From a virus (taxonomy: Duplodnaviria > Caudoviricetes), in the IMG/VR virus record IMGVR_UViG_3300032030_000062, positions 9,039 to 73,038 of that record: 64,000 nt of DNA, one strand, 5' to 3'. Positions 13,925 to 51,138 of the stretch are shown piece after piece (the first letter of the stretch is position 1; each line of letters opens with the position of its first letter). A program made the translations under genes and the position numbers. A model generated the notes under the pieces. It was not told the origin of the DNA and made no database searches. It was given only the letters and a program-made list of their open reading frames with translations.

Positions 13925-16771
13925 ATGAAAAATTTATCGACTGATTTTAAACGTGCTTTAGCACGAAATCATAGAAATTATCTCGCCTATGCGGACATAA
14001 CATGGCCTCAGAATCAACAAGGTCAGCGTCAGACATTAGCATTAAATAATACTAATTTATGGGCAGGTGGGTTCTCATATGAGGAACTTGTATCAGAAGA
14101 TGAAGAATTTACAGCATTAGGTTCTGTATATATGGGAACTGCCAAACTCATAATAAATAACATAGATGAAAGTTATACGCCATATGTATTTGAAGATGCT
14201 GAAAGCATGGTACTTCAAATAGGAATGGAATTTCCTGATACTTCACAGCAATCAGGAAAAAGAATAGAGAAACATAAAATAGGAACATATCATGCGGCAG
14301 AAGTTAAATATGATGGAACAATAGTATCATTATCTTTGCAGGATAATATTGCAAAATTTGATAAACCATATTCTGCAAGTAAATTAACTTATCCTGCTAC
14401 TTTAATTGATATTGTAAATAATTGTTGTACCATTTGTAATGTTCAATTGGCGAACAATTCATTACAATTTCCTCATTATAATTATGTGATTAAATCAAGA
14501 CCAGATGATGATGCCATAACATGTAGGGATGTAATTAGTTGGGTAGCTACTATAGCAGGATGTTTTGTAAAGTGTAATCCAGACGGTCAGATAGAATTTA
14601 AGTGGTTTAATCAGCAAGCTATTGAACAGGAAATGACAATACTCGATGGCGGTACCGTAACTCCGTGGAGTACAGGTCAAAATGTAAACGGCGGTACAGT
14701 AACTCCTTGGAGTACTGGTGAAGTTATAAACGGTGGTACAGGAGAAGGTACATATAATTTTCATACAATAACCAGTTTATATTCTCAAACTATTGCCCTC
14801 GATGATATAGTAATAACAGGACTAACAGTACAAATAGATAAAGATGTTAAATCATCTGAGGAAACTGAAGATTCTACTATATATTCTGTAGGAACTACTG
14901 GTTATATAATTTCGATCACGAATAATAAATTTTTTAATGCGGAAAATGCACAAGAAATATTAACATGGCTTGGAAATCAGTTAATAGGATTTCGATTCAG
15001 AAAATTAAATATAACTATTCCTAATACTCCCGCCATTGAATCTGGTGATGTTATGCTTGTATATGACAGAAAAGGAAGAGGATATGCAAGCTTAGTAACA
15101 AGAACAAGTTTTTCAGTGGGAGGTACACAAGAGATAGTATCCGGTGGAAGCACACCAACGAGAAATAAAGCCACACAGTATTCCGCATATGCACGTAGTA
15201 TAGTAGAAGCCAGAAGATTAGCACAGGCAAATAGAACAGCTTTTGATTCAGCTTTGGAAGATTTGGGTCGGGCATTAGACGCAAAAACTGGATTATATCC
15301 CACTGAAAAAACGACAGAATCAGGCAGTATTTACTATCTACATGATAGACCTAAACTTGAAGATTCTTCAACGGTAATACAAGTAACAAGTGAAGCTATA
15401 GGTATTACAACTAATTATAATAGAGGTGTTGATACTGAGTGGAATTGGGGCGTTACAGTAGACGGTACAACTATAACAAAAATATTAGTTGCAATCGGAG
15501 TAAACGCTAATTGGATAAGATCGGGTAATATAAAGATTGTAAATACAGTAAGTGGACAAGATGAAAAAGAAATTTTTTATGCAAGTATAGATTCCAAACT
15601 TGTTAGAATAGCAAAAGATGTAATAGTTGCTTCAAGTGATGGTATTGTCGTTATTCAAGCAAAAGATACAAATGGTAATGAAACATTTTATCTTAATTCT
15701 GGCACAGGTGTTGTTAGAATCAATGCGACAAGTTTTTCCTTAAGCGGTCGATCTGTAAATCAAATTGCATCTAATGCAGGTGCAACAGCAGGTGCGGATG
15801 CGGCGAATACAGCATTGGCTAATTATGATCCTGCCGATGAATTAACACAAGCTGAAATATTTAATCTATTAACTGGAGGAACGAAAACTACTCCGGGTTC
15901 TACACAAGGTATATGGTTAAACAATGGAAAAGTATATCTTAATTTTTCTTATGCGCGAGGTGGAGCATTAACACTTGGTGGAGCAAATAATGGAAATGGT
16001 ACTTTTAATGTACTTAATGCGGACAACAATCAAATAATCGCAATCGATAATAACGGAACAATTTTCAGAAGTACAACCGCTGACGAATACATTAAAATCA
16101 ATGAAAACATAATTCAAGGATATGCAGGTACACCGGCACGTTTACATAGTTGGATTGATTTATGTGCTGATTATGCTGGTACTGGTAGTTCAACCGTAAA
16201 ATGGATGGTTTTTGAAACCTCGTCATACTCCAAAGGTATAAAGTTGATAGCGGGTGGAAACGGTTCTATTGAATTAGACGCTGGTTCAAGATCAGTTAAG
16301 TTTTTATCAAAAATTGATGCTGGACAAATAAATTCATCAACCTATATAGAAGCCGCAGATCATTTTTATACACCTGGATATGTGGAAGCAAAAGATCATA
16401 TCAATACTTCAGGCAATGTAGAATGCTATAGTTTAACTGTAAACGGAACACCTCCGTGGACAACTTCATCCGATAGACGATTAAAGAAAAATATTGAAGA
16501 TGCCGAAGAACAAACAGAAAATATCAAAAAGCTGAAAGTTCATCAATTCGATTGGAAAGATGATAGTGGTCATGTTCCTGTCGGACTTGTCGCCCAGGAA
16601 TTACAAGAAGTTTATCCAGAACTTGTTAAAGAATCAGATAACGGATTGAGAATTGATTATATCAATATGGTTCCTTATCTAGTTAAAACAATTCAGGAAC
16701 AGAATGATAGAATCAATTTATTGGAGCAGAAATTAAATATGCTTGAAAAGAAATTGGAGAAACTTATATGA
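13925..16771 (+). CDS. Tail spike/baseplate hub protein with C-terminal intramolecular chaperone (S74-like)
   Basis: N-terminal Tal-like region, DGGTVTPWSTG repeats, SSDRRLKKNI..GLVAQELQEVYPELV..IDY C-terminus. Confidence 0.85.
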   Translation: MKNLSTDFKRALARNHRNYLAYADITWPQNQQGQRQTLALNNTNLWAGGFSYEELVSEDEEFTALGSVYMGTAKLIINNIDESYTPYVFEDAESMVLQIGMEFPDTSQQSGKRIEKHKIGTYHAAEVKYDGTIVSLSLQDNIAKFDKPYSASKLTYPATLIDIVNNCCTICNVQLANNSLQFPHYNYVIKSRPDDDAITCRDVISWVATIAGCFVKCNPDGQIEFKWFNQQAIEQEMTILDGGTVTPWSTGQNVNGGTVTPWSTGEVINGGTGEGTYNFHTITSLYSQTIALDDIVITGLTVQIDKDVKSSEETEDSTIYSVGTTGYIISITNNKFFNAENAQEILTWLGNQLIGFRFRKLNITIPNTPAIESGDVMLVYDRKGRGYASLVTRTSFSVGGTQEIVSGGSTPTRNKATQYSAYARSIVEARRLAQANRTAFDSALEDLGRALDAKTGLYPTEKTTESGSIYYLHDRPKLEDSSTVIQVTSEAIGITTNYNRGVDTEWNWGVTVDGTTITKILVAIGVNANWIRSGNIKIVNTVSGQDEKEIFYASIDSKLVRIAKDVIVASSDGIVVIQAKDTNGNETFYLNSGTGVVRINATSFSLSGRSVNQIASNAGATAGADAANTALANYDPADELTQAEIFNLLTGGTKTTPGSTQGIWLNNGKVYLNFSYARGGALTLGGANNGNGTFNVLNADNNQIIAIDNNGTIFRSTTADEYIKINENIIQGYAGTPARLHSWIDLCADYAGTGSSTVKWMVFETSSYSKGIKLIAGGNGSIELDAGSRSVKFLSKIDAGQINSSTYIEAADHFYTPGYVEAKDHINTSGNVECYSLTVNGTPPWTTSSDRRLKKNIEDAEEQTENIKKLKVHQFDWKDDSGHVPVGLVAQELQEVYPELVKESDNGLRIDYINMVPYLVKTIQEQNDRINLLEQKLNMLEKKLEKLI

Positions 16772-17244
16772 TAAGGTTAGAATTTGAGGTAAGCAATCAA
16801 TTTATAAATAGGACAGATCAACAAAAGCCAGTTTCTGATAGTAAGAACTATTTATATTCCCATTTCACTTTTTTAACAGAAGAGTGGCAGAATAAAACGG
16901 TCACTGCATTATTTACAAAAGGCGACAAATCGTTTATAATATTAGTAGATACAAATGGTGATTGTCCTGTACCTTGGGAACTTATTCAGAATGGGGGCGA
17001 TGTATATGTCTCAGTTTATAGCGGAGACTTATCTACCACGAATAACTCAAGAGTAACTATTTATGAAAGTGGTTATATAGAAAATGCAGAAAATTCTCAA
17101 CCACCTACTCCTAATATTTATGCCCAAATATTAGATGATGTAGATGGATTAAGAGGCGAGGTTGCAGAATTAAAAGATTTAATTGATGGCGGCGATGTAT
17201 TGATAATAGACGGTGGCAATACAAGCGACTGGATAAAGGAGTGA
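16768..17244 (+). CDS. Baseplate upper protein (BppU-like N-terminal domain)
   Basis: F.FLTEEWQNKTVTALF, C.VPWE, PPTPNIYAQI motifs. Confidence 0.7.
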   Translation: MIRLEFEVSNQFINRTDQQKPVSDSKNYLYSHFTFLTEEWQNKTVTALFTKGDKSFIILVDTNGDCPVPWELIQNGGDVYVSVYSGDLSTTNNSRVTIYESGYIENAENSQPPTPNIYAQILDDVDGLRGEVAELKDLIDGGDVLIIDGGNTSDWIKE

Positions 17245-17248
17245 TAAA

Positions 17249-18448
17249 TTGGATGCCATAATTCAAAACAGGCGAGGTGACTATTCGGAAGTTATTCCCG
17301 AAAACTTACGACCTGGTGAATATGTTGTTGTACAACAGAATGATCCTAATTCAGATAGTGGTCAATCTGTTTATGTAGGAATTAAACAGGGTGTTGTAAA
17401 AAGACTTGCTTTTTCTAATGAAGTGGGTGATTATCAGATTCAAGCACAAGAAGCGGCAGAACAAGCTAAGTCCGCTCAATCAGCAACAGCAACAATGGTT
17501 GGGCAAGTAAATACAAAGTATAATGAAATAAATACATTAGCTGGACAGGTAGCTACAAACGCACAAACAGCACAAACAGCGGCACAAACAGCAACAACTA
17601 AAGCAAATGAAGCATCCCAATCAAAAACAGATGCCCAAACAGCTTCACAAACATCTGTTAAGGTATTAGGAAGTATGGCTCCTGCTTATGATGCAACAAA
17701 GACATATGCAGTAGGAGATTTAGTTATATATGATAATGCATTAAAACAATGTAACACAGCTATAACTACTCCTGAAGCATGGAATGATGCTCATTGGATA
17801 AATGCTACTGTAGAAAACGAATTAACTAATTTAAAGGAAGATTTAAGTAATACAGACGCTTTGCAAAAATTGCTTTGTGATGATGTTCCGAATACCATTC
17901 AGACATACACGTTTACGGATGGAGCCGTATCGCAGGTAACTCACAGTGCAGACAATGTAGCGGTCAGAACGGATGTTTTTACTTATTCATCGTCATCAAT
18001 AACAGAAACACGGACGCTAAACAGTGGCGAATCTCTCGCAATTGTGACAAACCTTACAACACTGGAAACTACAGTGACTTACAACGAAGCCGAACCTTAT
18101 GAAGTAGTGTATAGCGTTACGGATGCTGTTCAAGGTGCTTGGGTATATAGTAATGGCTCTTATTCAAATAATGGTAGAACAGATAGGGCTGGTTCAAAGA
18201 TGCTCGGATATACGCCGCAAATCGGTGACATTATCAGGGTTGAGGACTCACAAAGACGATATAAATTTACCACTGGAACTGGCATAGATAACTACAGGAT
18301 TACCAGCACAGATGATTTAGTTGTTGACCAGACAGCAATGGCTACATTGAAAACGATTTTGTTTGTAAAAGCCGATAACTCTGACTTTACAAGCAATGAC
18401 CTTGCTTTTTTGAATCAAAATACTCATGTTTATAGACAATCGGTATAA
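17249..18448 (+). CDS. Tail fibre / receptor-binding protein, modular
   Basis: TTG start; IQNRRG N-terminus, Ala/Gln/Thr coiled coil, CBM-like YDATKTYAVGDLVIY, NLKEDL junction, variable C-terminus. Confidence 0.7.
   Translation: MDAIIQNRRGDYSEVIPENLRPGEYVVVQQNDPNSDSGQSVYVGIKQGVVKRLAFSNEVGDYQIQAQEAAEQAKSAQSATATMVGQVNTKYNEINTLAGQVATNAQTAQTAAQTATTKANEASQSKTDAQTASQTSVKVLGSMAPAYDATKTYAVGDLVIYDNALKQCNTAITTPEAWNDAHWINATVENELTNLKEDLSNTDALQKLLCDDVPNTIQTYTFTDGAVSQVTHSADNVAVRTDVFTYSSSSITETRTLNSGESLAIVTNLTTLETTVTYNEAEPYEVVYSVTDAVQGAWVYSNGSYSNNGRTDRAGSKMLGYTPQIGDIIRVEDSQRRYKFTTGTGIDNYRITSTDDLVVDQTAMATLKTILFVKADNSDFTSNDLAFLNQNTHVYRQSV
17824..17846 (+). repeat. Cassette-junction site, copy 0 (inside tail fibre gene)
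   Basis: AACTAATTTAAAGGAAGATTTAA (encodes TNLKEDL); TTAAA-N6-TTTAA dyad. Confidence 0.55.
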
Positions 18449-18466
18449 CAGAAAGAAGGTGTAAGA

Positions 18467-19372
18467 ATGGCAGTTAGTATTTGGGAAGGAAGTAAGGCGC
18501 AGGAACTTATAGATGCAGTAAAAAAAATCTCATCCAGTAGTGGCTTGTCTAATGAGGTTAAAATAGCATTATTGACTTGTTTTAGACACGTGGCATGGGA
18601 CGATGATCAATATCAAGTGTATTATGATGCGTTAGAAAATGCATTAAACCGTACAGACCCAGACCCAGGTTACCCTAAAATTATCGCAAGTTTTAATCAA
18701 GATTATCGAACAATTTATACTGACGATCCTATCAATTCATTAAAAAATAACATTATTGTTAAAAAATACGAGAATATAGATGACACAGATGGAACAATTA
18801 TATCAGATTATACAATACTTGGTACATTAAAGGAAGGAAATAGTATAGTTAATATTTCGTCAGAAGGGCTTAATGCAAGTCTTACCATTCCGTGTGTTTT
18901 ACCTAAATATACATATACTTTTACAGCTAACGATCTAATCCTTTATAAGGGTGGTGTCCAAAGTTGGGACCCGGATGGAAAAGTATATGTACCGTTTTTG
19001 GAGGCTAATAATACACGAAGAGGGTTCATTACTCCAAATGGGACTTATCCTTTAAGAATCAAACCGGGAAATACAATAGTGGAAGGGCATTATCCAATTC
19101 ATATACCATCTGACGCAACGTCTGTTACTATTTCTGTGTCGCCTAATACAATGCAAGTTGCTTGTAACGGTTGGGAAATGGATTTTTCAGAAAAACGTTA
19201 TAGATATATTAGTGATAGTGATTCTGGTTTTTCAACCGGAGGAGTATCGAAAGCTATACCTTTATCAAATAAATATTCTGGCGTACGAGCGTTGGGCATT
19301 ATTCTTAAATTTAATAGTTCCGGCTCTACATTCACAACGGAGCCGACTCAATGCACTGTTACATTTTCATGA
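18467..19372 (+). CDS. Tail-associated protein with Ig-like domain
   Basis: KIALLTCFRHVAW..YYDALENAL motif followed by beta-rich Ig-like segment. Confidence 0.55.
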   Translation: MAVSIWEGSKAQELIDAVKKISSSSGLSNEVKIALLTCFRHVAWDDDQYQVYYDALENALNRTDPDPGYPKIIASFNQDYRTIYTDDPINSLKNNIIVKKYENIDDTDGTIISDYTILGTLKEGNSIVNISSEGLNASLTIPCVLPKYTYTFTANDLILYKGGVQSWDPDGKVYVPFLEANNTRRGFITPNGTYPLRIKPGNTIVEGHYPIHIPSDATSVTISVSPNTMQVACNGWEMDFSEKRYRYISDSDSGFSTGGVSKAIPLSNKYSGVRALGIILKFNSSGSTFTTEPTQCTVTFS

Positions 19373-19398
19373 ATATTATTTATGGATGGTGATATAAA

Positions 19399-20214
19399 AT
19401 GGCAATATATAGTCTTAGTAAGGGCAGACTTTACGATGAATCAGAAAGTGATAGTTTTTTTAAAAATGTGCTAATTACTCGTGGGCGAGTACATAATGCA
19501 AATTATTATATTTTACATATAAATAAACAACGAAATGATGGTAAATTTCAATATCCATTCGTATATTGTCCTAATGGAAGCAGTGCAAGAAATCAGTCAG
19601 CCTTGTCAATGAACATACAAAAAGGATATTATATTGCAATAAATGCCGGTATATTTGACGTTGATGGTCAATATGACAAAACTGATGGGCAAAGAAGAAA
19701 CGCTCCTCTTGGAATAACCATACAAAATTCTACAGTTATTACAGGAAGTGACGGATACTATCATGATGCACTAACCATAAATCAAAACGGAGATCTGAGT
19801 CACACACCTCGTGGTATAGACACAGATGCACAAAGTTTAATAACGAATGGCATTGTATCGGCTGTGACTGGGTTTGGAGCATTTATTGAAAATTATGAGG
19901 TCAATGATTCAGCACAAGGAATTATTGGTAGTTATGATGCGCAAAGACAGATAATAGGACAATATGGAAATGGAGATTACGCCATTATAACCATAGAAGG
20001 CCGTTCGTTTGATAATTCAACGGGTTTATCAGTTGCCAACATAACTGACTTTTGTGTGAATTTGGGATTAAAGTTCGCGTATTTACTTGACGGTGGCGGA
20101 AGTACCGAAACGGTTATAGGCAGAAAACAATTAAATACCATATACGAAGGTACGCAAGGTAGGTTAGTGCCTACATTTATAGTATTTAATGGCATGAATG
20201 TTTTTACCGCATAA
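19399..20214 (+). CDS. Phosphodiester glycosidase (NAGPA-like) family protein
   Basis: AINAGIF, AQRQIIGQ..GDYAIITIEGR, AYLLDGGGSTE motifs. Confidence 0.8.
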   Translation: MAIYSLSKGRLYDESESDSFFKNVLITRGRVHNANYYILHINKQRNDGKFQYPFVYCPNGSSARNQSALSMNIQKGYYIAINAGIFDVDGQYDKTDGQRRNAPLGITIQNSTVITGSDGYYHDALTINQNGDLSHTPRGIDTDAQSLITNGIVSAVTGFGAFIENYEVNDSAQGIIGSYDAQRQIIGQYGNGDYAIITIEGRSFDNSTGLSVANITDFCVNLGLKFAYLLDGGGSTETVIGRKQLNTIYEGTQGRLVPTFIVFNGMNVFTA

Positions 20215-20226
20215 TTGAGGATATTG

Positions 20227-20250
20227 AATTAACTTAAAGCAGGCTTTTAA
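20227..20250 (+). repeat. Cassette-junction site, copy 1
   Basis: AATTAACTTAAAGCAGGCTTTTAA, intergenic. Confidence 0.75.
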
Positions 20251-20288
20251 ACACATAAAAAATACTGTTTTGGCAAAGGATAATAACA

Positions 20289-20546
20289 ATGCTGTTTAAT
20301 GATATTAACATTGGTGACGTATTTGTAAAAATACATGGATCAAAAGCGCACTACCTTTGCGTTGGTAAAAGTATAAATATAGAAGAAGGTCAAGTGATAA
20401 ATATTGTACATTTATTAAATATCAAGTATCCGCAGTTACCGAAAGCTATACGTTTTGAAGATTTTAAAGAATTTACTAAAGCTGGTCATGAGGATTTAAG
20501 CGGAATCAAACAGATTTTAGATGTAATTAAAGAGAAGTATGTTTAA
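20289..20546 (+). CDS. Hypothetical protein (cassette gene)
   Basis: 85-aa ORF with AAAGGA RBS, flanked by repeat copies 1 and 2. Confidence 0.65.
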   Translation: MLFNDINIGDVFVKIHGSKAHYLCVGKSINIEEGQVINIVHLLNIKYPQLPKAIRFEDFKEFTKAGHEDLSGIKQILDVIKEKYV

Positions 20547-20547
20547 T

Positions 20548-20570
20548 AACTAACTTAAAGCAGGCAGTAT
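20548..20570 (+). repeat. Cassette-junction site, copy 2
   Basis: AACTAACTTAAAGCAGGCAGTAT, immediately after the stop codon. Confidence 0.8.
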
Positions 20571-20582
20571 GGAGATTATTAC

Positions 20583-20705
20583 ATGATAATTCTTATAGCG
20601 GTATTAACATTACTCGGCATAATAAGTTCGATTTATGAAATCCGAAACGAAACCGAGGATGATAAAAAGAAAAAGAAATGGCTGTTTGAACACGGTCTTT
20701 ACTAA
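20583..20705 (+). CDS. Small membrane protein (40 aa, cassette gene)
   Basis: MIILIAVLTLLGIISSIYEIRNETEDDKKKKKWLFEHGLY; GGAG RBS; stop codon lies within repeat copy 3; below ORF-track cutoff. Confidence 0.6.
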   Translation: MIILIAVLTLLGIISSIYEIRNETEDDKKKKKWLFEHGLY

Positions 20706-20722
20706 CTTAAAGCAGACGGTAT
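20700..20722 (+). repeat. Cassette-junction site, copy 3
   Basis: TACTAACTTAAAGCAGACGGTAT. Confidence 0.8.
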
Positions 20723-20736
20723 AAAGGATAATACAA

Positions 20737-20820
20737 ATGGTATATTTAATAGGTGGTTTAGTTATAGGTTTTGCAGGCGGGATGATGTTTGCAACTATGA
20801 TATTCGATAAGGAGAGATGA
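20737..20820 (+). CDS. Small hydrophobic peptide (27 aa)
   Basis: MVYLIGGLVIGFAGGMMFATMIFDKER; AAAGGA RBS; ATGA overlap with next gene. Confidence 0.5.
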   Translation: MVYLIGGLVIGFAGGMMFATMIFDKER

Positions 20821-21077
20821 ATATGACATTTGGAGAAGCACTTGAAAAAGTAAAAGAAGGTAAACGTATTTCAAGAAAAGGATGGAATGGTAAAGAACAA
20901 TATGTAGAACTTGCTACCCATGTTTCGTATCAAAACTCTAAAGGTGAAATTATAAATCCACAACACGATGCATTTGCAGGAAGTATTGCCCTTGCTTTTG
21001 TAGGTACTTCTGGAATACAGATTGGATGGCTTGCTTCACAAGCAGATATGTTAGCTAACGACTGGGAGGTTAAATAA
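20817..21077 (+). CDS. DUF2829 / Tad2-like protein (putative anti-Thoeris sponge)
   Basis: MTFGEALEKVKEGKRISRKGWNGK..GWLASQADMLANDWEV matches the DUF2829 pattern. Confidence 0.8.
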   Translation: MNMTFGEALEKVKEGKRISRKGWNGKEQYVELATHVSYQNSKGEIINPQHDAFAGSIALAFVGTSGIQIGWLASQADMLANDWEVK

Positions 21078-21349
21078 TGAACTATACACTGGTTATATCG
21101 GTATGTTCTTTACTCTTAGCCGGGTATACTTTTCTCAGTAAGAATAATAAGGAAAATACAACAGAACTAACAACCGTCATTGTGAAGTTGGAAAATATAG
21201 GTAATGGAATAAGGGACATTAAGACTGAATTAGCTACATTAAAGAATGATCAGAAAGAAGATCATGATAAGATTATAAAGTTGGAAGCTTCTATAGCAAC
21301 TGCCTGGAAACGCATTGATGAGATAAAGAAGGAAGATGCAAATTTATGA
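21077..21349 (+). CDS. Holin-like / XhlA-like membrane protein
   Basis: Single N-terminal TM helix plus coiled coil ending AWKRID. Confidence 0.55.
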   Translation: MNYTLVISVCSLLLAGYTFLSKNNKENTTELTTVIVKLENIGNGIRDIKTELATLKNDQKEDHDKIIKLEASIATAWKRIDEIKKEDANL

Positions 21350-21545
21350 TTTTACAGTTCCAGAATTAAATAAGTTTAGGGAATTATGTAACTTTGATGA
21401 ACAGGAATTAACTTATTTTAATTTCCGCGCCCGTCATAAATCAAATACATTTATCTCTATGGAGATGCATGTATCAGAAGCACAAGTATCAAAGTTGGCA
21501 AAACGTGTAAAGAGTAAGATTTTAAGAGTAACTCCTTATTTATAA
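21336..21545 (+). CDS. Small HTH regulator (sigma region-4/LuxR-like)
   Basis: ELCNFDEQEL.YF..RAR.KS..ISMEMHVSEAQVSKLAKRVKSKI pattern. Confidence 0.6.
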   Translation: MQIYDFTVPELNKFRELCNFDEQELTYFNFRARHKSNTFISMEMHVSEAQVSKLAKRVKSKILRVTPYL

Positions 21546-21564
21546 AAAACGTATAATTTTTGTA

Positions 21565-21596
21565 AGAGTACCGTATAAGTGCGGTACTCTTTTTTT
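21565..21596 (+). terminator. Rho-independent terminator or operator palindrome
   Basis: AGAGTACCG-N8-CGGTACTCT followed by T run; TATAAT at 21600-05 directly after. Confidence 0.65.
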
Positions 21597-49922: not shown

Positions 49923-50129
49923 ATGTTTATATGTACAAAGTGTGGTTCCAAACAATCCAAAATTATTGAAACCAGATTATGCGGTGAGAATGTTATTAGG
50001 TTAAGAATTTGTAAAGCCTGTAATAACAGAATGTATACTGAGGAAAGTAAAATAGATTATTTTGACGGTTGGGATAAATTATCTAAATTTTACCGAAAAC
50101 AAAGGAGCAATCATGGGATCAAAACTTGA
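49923..50129 (+). CDS. NrdR-like Zn-ribbon protein
   Basis: CTKCG..IIETR..RLRICKAC..YTEE. Confidence 0.65.
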   Translation: MFICTKCGSKQSKIIETRLCGENVIRLRICKACNNRMYTEESKIDYFDGWDKLSKFYRKQRSNHGIKT

Positions 50130-51138
50130 CGAAATTTTAAAAAATACCAACAAGAAATTTAAAGAGGAAATTCTTACTCAAGGTTTAAACGAGTTTTCTT
50201 ACAAACGTATTCCATTTACATCGCCCAGAATGAATTATTGTACATTCGGTGGTATCCCAATCGGAAAGATTACAGAATTTTATGGAGAAGAGCATGGCGG
50301 TAAAACAACGACCGCTTTGGATATTGTAGCTAATTATCAGAAATCAGATGATACAAGAGATGTATTATACATAGATGCAGAAAATACACTTGACGTAGAG
50401 TGGGCGAAGAAAATAGGTGTAGATGTAGCAAAATTATATATATTACAACCTAAGTCTCAGTCGGCAGAAGAGATATTTCAAATTATTTGTGATAGTGTAG
50501 ATACAGGCGAAGTTGGATTATGGGTTCTTGATAGTATAGGTGCTTTAATGTCAGCACAGGAACTTGAAAAGACTATGGAAGATAAAACGTATGGTGGTAT
50601 TTCAATGCCTTTAACAAAATTTGGTAAAAGAATTGAAATGCTTATGCAGAGACATAAATGCACCGGTATAGGAATAAATCAGATCAGAGAAGATTTAAAC
50701 AGCACATGGGGAGGTATTTCTACTCCCGGTGGAAAAGCATGGAAACATTTTTGTGCTGTAAGAATGCAATTTAGTAGAGGTAAGTTTATAGACGAAAAAG
50801 GAAATGAACTTACAAGATCAGCAGAGAGTCCTGTTGGTAATATTGTAATGATGAGTATGACAAAGAATAAAACATGCCCGCCGACAAGAAGAACAGGATT
50901 TTATACAATCAATTATGAAAAGGGAATTGATTATTTACGTGACTTAATAGAGGTTGCTATCAGATATGATATTGTGAGAAAATCTGGCGCATGGTTTGAT
51001 ATAGTAGATATAGAAACAGGCGAGATCATAGAAGGAAAAATTCACGGTCAAGCGGCAGTGAATGAATTGTTAGCAAATCATCCTGGTTATCTTCAAAGAG
51101 TAGAAGAATTGGTAGATCAAGTCATGCAAAAAAATTAA
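50113..51138 (+). CDS. recA: RecA/UvsX-like recombinase
   Basis: GIPIGKITEFYGEEHGGKTT, IDAE, VLDSIGAL, INQIR, TPGGKA. Confidence 0.95.
   Translation: MGSKLDEILKNTNKKFKEEILTQGLNEFSYKRIPFTSPRMNYCTFGGIPIGKITEFYGEEHGGKTTTALDIVANYQKSDDTRDVLYIDAENTLDVEWAKKIGVDVAKLYILQPKSQSAEEIFQIICDSVDTGEVGLWVLDSIGALMSAQELEKTMEDKTYGGISMPLTKFGKRIEMLMQRHKCTGIGINQIREDLNSTWGGISTPGGKAWKHFCAVRMQFSRGKFIDEKGNELTRSAESPVGNIVMMSMTKNKTCPPTRRTGFYTINYEKGIDYLRDLIEVAIRYDIVRKSGAWFDIVDIETGEIIEGKIHGQAAVNELLANHPGYLQRVEELVDQVMQKN

Follow-up and report, generated by a model that had tools for sequence, protein, structure and literature searches.

A short joint sequence coincides with mosaic breakpoints in the tail-fibre and accessory-gene zone of a complete 73-kb phage genome

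The window described here, by which we mean the whole stretch of 64,000 nucleotides that was analysed, comprises bases 9039-73038 of the virus record IMGVR_UViG_3300032030_000062 (Caudoviricetes), a genome of 73,038 bp that has direct terminal repeats and is 100% complete. Its long open reading frames (ORFs) all lie on the + strand, and they encode, among others, a tape-measure-sized product of 2125 amino acids (aa) and a tail protein of 948 aa that contains a Peptidase_S74 chaperone domain. Downstream of the tail-fibre gene lie a gene for a 301-aa protein and the phosphodiester glycosidase gene NAGPA; a few tiny genes separate these from a Tad2-like gene, after which come two conserved genes of small size and a terminator. 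A short sequence built around TTAAAG, called the joint in the following, occurs four times in this zone: once in frame within the fibre gene (copy 0) and three times at gene ends further downstream (copies 1-3). Homology to other phages breaks at all four copies, and we suggest that the joint is a place where fibre tips and accessory genes are exchanged.

A sequence-only reading of this DNA had described four sites in the same orientation, with TTAAAG starting at 17831, 20234, 20555 and 20707, which cut the zone into units of 2403, 321 and 152 bp. The four copies are there, all on the + strand, and so are the features ascribed to them: copies 1-3 sit at or just 3' of stop codons, copy 0, placed by that reading at an NLKEDL junction of the fibre, lies in frame in ELTNLKEDL, and similar leaders of the AAAGGATAATA(A)CAATG type follow copies 1 and 3. 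The 'Ig-like' label given to the 301-aa protein did not hold, as no Pfam or PHROG family matched. From the first base given for each in Table 1, copies 1-3 read A[AT]YTAACTTAAAGCAGRC. A search of the window for TAACTTAAAGCAGRC with up to two mismatches gave 3 matches against 0.25 expected, a number reached in 0 of 100 shuffles. When the 18-mer was sought with up to three mismatches on both strands of the whole 73,038-bp genome, copies 1-3 were the only matches. The motif is not equally common genome-wide but confined to this zone.

Copies 2 and 3 lie within a 35-nt repeat that is 80% identical and fills the whole intergenic spacer. Copy 0 matches the intergenic consensus at 14 of 18 positions, a score that two other loci equal, and in a weight matrix built from 18 instances it scored 17.0 bits versus 31-32 bits for copies 1-3. 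With this matrix it was, apart from copies 1-3, the sole site of the genome above 10 bits on either strand; control phage DNA contained about one match of at least 17 bits per 2.4 Mb. Judged on its sequence only, copy 0 is a borderline case (roughly p 0.05-0.1); what validates it is comparison, since a mosaic breakpoint lies there against each of three other phages.

The first of these is L228, a 7.9-kb contig and DNA-level relative whose shared blocks are 74-80% identical at the nucleotide level. Its homology spans 16469-17848 and ends directly after copy 0, and the last 22 bases, which are the motif, are 21/22 identical, compared with about 77% across the 1.4-kb aligned segment. The homology returns at about 21062, at the ribosome-binding site of the 90-aa gene. 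In the interval, L228 carries a different fibre tip (in a 701-aa fibre), a NAGPA that is 37% identical to the one in the window, and then ATAACTAACTTAAAGGCACTTTAAC. The 85-aa, 40-aa, 27-aa and Tad2-like genes are missing from L228 and the motif is present after its NAGPA; this locus is an empty site. The contig L230 covers the other side of the junction: residues 40-248 of its 250-aa fibre align with residues 189-397 of the window fibre at 77% identity, and the DNA homology begins at 17817 and ends at 18519. The 30 bp of copy 0 are the sole overlap between the N-side and C-side homologies of the fibre, and the domain junction of the fibre lies at aa 189-200. In the third case, L213, the part held in common with the fibre region is 17823-17849 only. 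The arrangement of an in-frame fibre linker and then an intergenic copy after the last tail-accessory gene was also found in L228, L230, L059 and L216.

At the intergenic copies, the breakpoints were revealed by genes that travel between different contexts. Among 5.8 billion proteins, the homologues of the 85-aa gene form no more than four clusters, and these stand in different surroundings. One of them is on L175, an otherwise unrelated 11.9-kb contig (Prophage_tail, a pectate-lyase protein, an 86-aa gene, a holin and a Glucosaminidase-CHAP lysin), which shares with the window only 20230-20564, that is, 335 bp from motif to motif, and which has the motif on both sides. The left limit of homology at copy 1 is 20230 for L175, 20229 for L177 and 20227 for L179, and the upstream genes are unrelated in each, with L177/L178 and L179 carrying other genes in front of the 85-aa homologue. 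The right limit at copy 2 is 20564, 20556 and 20548 for the same three contigs, a spread of 16 bp. In L177 and L179 the Tad2-like gene comes directly after the 85-aa gene, and the window has 264 extra bases relative to L177 (20557-20820), beginning inside copy 2. For copy 3, the evidence is from L205, in which a 485-aa gene is followed by the motif, a 42-aa homologue of the 40-aa peptide and a Tad2-like gene; its homology stops at 20701, in the first bases of copy 3, and returns at 20807. The parts also occur in other orders, namely M14 peptidase, motif and Tad2 (L202); motif and Tad2 (L204); a 70-aa gene, motif, holin, Tad2 and lysin (L206); and a 271-aa gene, motif and a truncated Tad2 remnant (L182).

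These limits bear out the earlier suggestion that the sites delimit exchangeable units. They do not support it for the 2403-bp unit, which was exchanged whole in no relative found: 18519 is the last position homologous to L230, and the block of L228 extends to about 21062. Not all indels of the zone involve the joint, because L202 carries at 2258-2560, after its Tad2-like gene and ahead of the conserved 90-aa gene (21077 in the window), a 100-aa gene (weak DUF4406 match) that has no motif at its borders.

Table 1. Positions of the joint copies and other features, numbered from the first base of the window
Feature	Position	Strand	Remarks
Copy 0	17819..17848	+	In-frame joint GAATTAACTAATTTAAAGGAAGATTTAAGT, encoding ELTNLKEDLS; overlap of N-side and C-side homologies; 17.0 bits
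Copy 1	20227..20251	+	AATTAACTTAAAGCAGGC plus imperfect right half (TTAAAG-CAGG-CTTTTAA); left border of 85-aa cassette
Copy 2	20548..20565	+	AACTAACTTAAAGCAGGC; right border of 85-aa cassette, left border of 40-aa cassette
Copy 3	20700..20717	+	TACTAACTTAAAGCAGAC; contains the stop codon of the 40-aa gene
Tail-fibre gene, 399 aa	17249..18448	+	Mosaic: aa 1-200 vs P0128 (L228 fibre), aa 189-397 vs P0126 (L230 fibre)
301-aa protein, no known family	18467..19372	+	Only about the first 60 aa resemble the gene after the L230 fibre
Phosphodiester glycosidase (NAGPA), last tail-accessory gene	19399..20214	+	37% identical to L228 counterpart
85-aa cassette gene	20289..20546	+	At least 4 other genomic contexts
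40-aa membrane-peptide gene	20583..20705	+	42-aa homologue in L205
Putative 27-aa hydrophobic ORF with AAAGGA ribosome-binding site	20737..20820	+	Absent from L177, L179 and L205
Tad2-like gene (anti-Thoeris family, PF11195)	20823..21077	+	In variable accessory block; absent from L228
Start of conserved downstream block	21062..21591	+	L228 homology resumes at about 21062-21065
90-aa gene with ribosome-binding site	21077-21349	+	Conserved downstream block
69-aa gene	21336-21545	+	Conserved downstream block
Strong terminator	21564-21591	+	First terminator 3' of 20215
RecA homologue	50062..51138	+	PF00154, 1.7e-40; RecA_C domain

The small genes deserve some comment. The 40-aa membrane peptide is a real conserved micro-gene, because its 42-aa homologue (L205 1513-1641) keeps the C-terminal tail ..ETE(D/E)DKKKK(K)(W/I)WLFEHGLY. 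The 85-aa protein has no sequence family; its Atlas model (pTM 0.79) resembles the CarD/TRCF RNA-polymerase-interacting domain (TM 0.66), and a role as a host-takeover factor that binds RNA polymerase is only a lead from this model. In L182 (1626-1720), only about the first 31 codons of Tad2 are left, and they are joined to ...GGAGGCTTTAAAATAATG, which resembles the right half of the joint; this remnant looks like a deletion scar.

The joint was not peculiar to this genome. The string AACTAACTTAAAG-N4-CTTTAA was found at 8 IMG/VR loci, compared with about 0.2 expected by our own estimate, and at 20 loci in metagenomes. In nearly all of the IMG/VR matches and in about half of the metagenome loci, a tail-type or carbohydrate-active gene has its stop codon inside the motif or immediately ahead of it, and on the 3' side there follows a terminator or the next ribosome-binding site. 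Two copies bracket unrelated mini-genes in L010 (174 bp, 49-aa ORF), L135 (212 bp, 40-aa ORF) and L220, which has three copies. The motif carriers include records of 18 kb and 32 kb, and essentially no proteins are common to them or to the 73-kb phage. The exact 15-mer had 94 matches in IMG/VR that were mostly coding chance (DNLKQA and similar); the true intergenic sites among them were on five contigs and represented four distinct sites. In 185,579 reference bacterial genomes the motif occurred at about the level of chance (6 matches vs about 4 expected), and none of the matches was clearly in a prophage. Another element, AACTAA-TTAATTAAAG-N4-CTTTAATTAA, with a 10-bp A+T dyad and a variable spacer, was seen around position 9200 of L142-L160 (for example L143 9195-9235), where it has differing genes on its upstream side and a conserved leader on its downstream side; these loci belong to a large group of viral contigs of about 35-40 kb. 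It looks like a sister family of the joint.

The joint is 13-23 nt long. Its intergenic form is (A)AC-TAACTTAAAG-N4-(CTTTAA) and its in-frame form is ACTAATTTAAAGGAAGATTTA, which codes for the fibre linker (E/D)xLTxLKxDL. The core AAC-TAA-C-TT-AAA-G contains TAA in two frames; the third frame is open and reads T-N-L-K, the peptide that copy 0 encodes inside ENELTNLKEDL. The upstream genes of different phages stop at ..N*, at ..LT* or directly before the motif. The palindrome consists of 6+4+6 bp, and copies 2 and 3 are without its right arm. The left half is constant, and the right half moves together with the cassette that follows it: every instance of the 85-aa gene has CAGGCTTT(T)AAA. The (D/E)xLTxLKxDL peptide is kept in many fibres, at a domain boundary, and dozens of proteins match only about residues 190-280. 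The codons TTA AAG are used in 4/4 of the fibre linkers recovered, versus 13% expected from the genome's own codon usage, a preference that is only suggestive with a small sample of related fibres. We infer, short of proof, that one sequence patch with one origin is used in two ways, as intergenic joint and as coding linker.

We give slightly better than even credence to the joint being a conserved module joint at which general or short-homology recombination takes place. When co-infecting phages or prophages recombine or switch templates, the event would repeatedly resolve inside the patch because otherwise unrelated phages have it in common, and such events would be tolerated because the upstream genes still terminate, in two frames, and the downstream genes keep their own ribosome-binding sites. 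A crossover at the fibre copy would swap the receptor-binding tip together with the accessory genes downstream of it, and crossovers at an intergenic copy would lead to gain or loss of small accessory genes (the 85-aa, 40-aa and 27-aa ORFs, beside the Tad2-like gene). Every insertion would leave one more copy of the joint, and in this way an array would grow. Exchange between two direct copies might loop out a small circle, which could then enter the single copy in another phage. The recombination mechanism and the circular intermediate are the conjectural parts of this scheme; the coincidence of the motif with breakpoints and its recurrence in unrelated phages are observations.

Several points weigh against the module joint. 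The shared patch of about 10-18 bp is below the length for efficient RecA-type recombination, and the repeated use of so tiny a patch could point to an enzyme with a sequence preference, possibly one from the host. The dyad TTAAAG-N4-CTTTAA keeps its arms while the spacer varies, and to judge from this pattern it looks like a protein-binding site. Because the motif was retained where the flanking NAGPA genes had diverged to 37% identity, selection seems to act on the motif itself, and it probably has a function of its own. Moreover, breakpoints are expected near gene ends anyway, and part of the coincidence is thus not specific to the motif.

Such a function could lie in gene expression alone. 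The joint would then serve as a stop in several frames, as an insulator or enhancer of translation, as a site of RNA processing or as an operator, and the breakpoints would gather there because only gene-end recombinants survive. We consider this not very likely. It would agree with the position of the motif, which always overlaps or closely follows a stop codon and precedes a ribosome-binding site or terminator; with many IMG/VR matches to AACTAACTTAAAGNAGG, which are plain stop-plus-Shine-Dalgarno junctions (AAAGGAGG, then ATG); with its persistence behind diverged NAGPA genes; and with the dyad of variable spacer, which resembles an operator or hairpin. However, the hairpin is weak in the relatives (about -2 kcal/mol) and missing from all three intergenic copies of the window, and the window copies have no stable fold (minimum free energy 0 to -3 kcal/mol, no better than shuffled). 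No sigma-70-type promoter or terminator was found at 20227-20251, 20548-20582 or 20700-20736, there is neither promoter nor terminator between 20215 and 21077, and an Rfam search of the motif returned no family; a literature search for the motif string gave nothing relevant. Anything from 20 to 75 nt separates the motif from the start codon that follows. The motif occupies one place only in a genome of about 100 genes, unlike a general intergenic signal, and a role in expression leaves unexplained the exact motif-to-motif sharing with an unrelated phage and the in-frame joint of the fibre. By analogy with the promoter-early stem-loops (PeSLs) of T4-type phages, which are both signals and joints, an expression signal would be compatible with the module joint and not exclude it. 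Another proposal, a purely local history, is in our opinion very improbable. According to it, copies 2 and 3 are a tandem duplication of the membrane-peptide gene and its leader, copy 1 belongs to the flanks of the 85-aa gene, and copy 0 is due to chance or coding. The 35-nt spacer common to copies 2 and 3, the short hydrophobic ORFs after both of them (about 47% identical in the first 36 nt) and the modest match of copy 0, for whose sequence the coding of a conserved peptide accounts, would fit this history. It is largely refuted by the occurrence of the same motif at the same kind of position in many unrelated phages, including the arrays with unrelated mini-genes in L010, L135 and L220; the L205 homologue of the 40-aa gene likewise stands behind a motif copy, and copy 0 is a demonstrated breakpoint against three phages.

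The sequence-only reading had proposed integron- or shufflon-like, site-specific capture and exchange of receptor-binding tips and accessory genes. The exchange is borne out, but the site-specific mechanism is not, and we regard as improbable a host-encoded recombinase, or one of a new family, that would act on TTAAAG-N4-CTTTAA with circular cassettes and a fixed crossover point. The cassettes in direct orientation, each bounded by a site, the transfer from motif to motif into the unrelated L175, the very short shared homology, the conserved dyad with its variable spacer and the constant left half with a right half that moves with the downstream cassette all speak for such an enzyme. Against it, no tyrosine or serine recombinase, Y1 transposase, RecT, ERF or Rad52 was found in the complete 73,038-bp genome (PF00589, PF00239, PF01797, PF03837, PF04404 and PF04098 absent; PF13479 below the cut-off), and the RecA homologue is the sole recombinase found there. 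Three other motif-bearing records have no Resolvase, with a Phage_integrase match in G002 alone; the motif-bearing G003 and G004 have no candidate enzyme in common with this phage or with each other, and no protein family is common to G000, G003 and G004. The dyad has 6+4+6 or 7+2+7 bp, which does not agree with the arms of 11-13 bp and spacer of 6-8 bp of tyrosine-recombinase core sites, and copies 2 and 3 and many relatives have a half-site only. The homology limits at copy 2 differ by up to 16 bp, and in the reference bacterial genomes the motif is at about the level of chance. Inversion of the shufflon kind is excluded, as all sites are direct repeats. Membership among integrons, shufflons or tyrosine-recombinase sites is therefore disfavoured by the lack of a recombinase, the 6+4+6 dyad, the half-sites, the direct repeats and the limit that wanders over 16 bp. 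We hold it to be just as improbable that the joint is the recognition site of a recombinase or nicking enzyme, host-encoded or of a new family, that serves, by means of small circles, a phage-borne, integron-like exchange of tips and anti-defence mini-genes among unrelated gut and rumen phages.

The resemblance to integrons lies in the layout only, with small, mostly promoterless ORFs of the same orientation, one site each, and empty and filled alleles. No IntI is present here (PF00589 unmatched), the joint of 13-23 nt is not an attC of 57-141 bp with paired cores, and there is no evidence for a fixed crossover point; AACTAAC agrees with RYYYAAC at 6/7 positions, but no GTTRRRY partner follows. 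The R64 shufflon and the Gin/Cin/Min systems likewise use short repeated sites to vary the C-terminal part of an adhesin or fibre. They do so by inversion, with inverted sites and an adjacent recombinase; in this genome no site above 10 bits was found on the - strand, and PF00589 and PF00239 are absent.

The closest precedent for the module joint comes from T4-type phages, in whose PeSL cassettes (Arbiol et al. 2010, PMC2839356; Comeau et al. 2014, PMC4122927) a conserved intergenic motif flanks ORFans and bounds indels, with no dedicated recombinase known. In those phages, exchange between neighbouring copies yields mini-circles (PMC2839356, PMC4122927). Both systems have short conserved direct repeats between genes, around small ORFans in a hyperplastic region; in both, the indels and replacements between relatives are bounded by the repeat, a general recombination system is encoded by the phage itself, and no dedicated recombinase is known. 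A PeSL is made up of a strong promoter of the sigma-70 type and a terminator hairpin rich in G+C. The joint has neither of these, and consists of stop codons and an A+T-rich half- or full dyad, with an in-frame version in the fibre gene. It is found in one zone of the genome and not in many, and it is shared by genomes of 18 kb, 32 kb and 73 kb that are otherwise unlike.

Swapping of tail-fibre tips can be mediated by conserved in-frame motifs, for example in the distal fibre locus of the T-even phages. The fibre described here is similar in that a conserved in-frame linker lies at a domain boundary and that the N-terminal and C-terminal homologies to different phages meet there. It differs in that the DNA of the linker resembles a non-coding joint that also bounds downstream cassettes unrelated to fibres. 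In function, we read the joint as resembling a PeSL combined with fibre-linker exchange. The accessory genes also recall the morons of lambdoid and other phages, which lie between the tail-fibre and the lysis or late modules and are present or absent among relatives. Classical morons have their own promoter and terminator, of which there are none here, and they have no common flanking repeat.

It is notable that a single joint serves the receptor-binding tip as well as accessory or anti-defence genes, and that unrelated phages share it. Host range, determined by the fibre tip and its enzymes, and counter-defence, represented by the Tad2-like gene and the small accessory genes, decide the success of a phage, and in this genome they form one block. 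The block is edged by a joint of 13-23 nt that also recurs in phages with no other shared features. If the joint channels exchange, it would explain how host-range and counter-defence genes spread across unrelated gut and rumen phages, and it would extend the PeSL idea beyond T4-type phages. It would also offer an easy way to find variable cargo in metagenomic phages by sequence. Whether mosaicism arises by short conserved linkers or by random illegitimate recombination has been debated (PMC3945230), and a defined short sequence would make this question directly testable.

The hosts may be among gut or rumen Bacillota, because more distant Tad2 homologues carry the source names Blautia and Hominenteromicrobium and because cassette-carrying phages have Glucosaminidase/CHAP lysins. 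In the GenBank phage collection there was no usable close relative, and only 80 bp of the Tad2 gene matched, in Lactobacillus phage SA-C12. Searches of IMG/VR for related loci with the fibre, the 948-aa tail protein, the 85-aa protein and NAGPA gave nothing, and the same was true of metagenomes for NAGPA. A resemblance to the T7 gene 10 leader TTAACTTTAAG would suggest an epsilon-like translational enhancer, but the distance to the start codon is variable, and terminators follow some copies. Distant syntenic relatives (L095-L097) lack the motif, and all they show is that the variable zone corresponds to 17434-21080.

Two minor observations concern the surroundings of the joint. In L228 (5672-5715), AACTAAC is paired 28 nt downstream by a perfect GTTAGTT, which would enclose the small dyad in a larger stem; this was not seen in other instances. 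In the shaft of the window fibre, a 21-nt unit (GCACAAACAGCGGCACAAACA and similar) is present six times, in diverged form, at 17444-17653 and encodes an Ala/Gln/Thr-rich repeat, and downstream of this repeat there is a CBM_5_12-like segment that recurs many times in very large metagenomic proteins.

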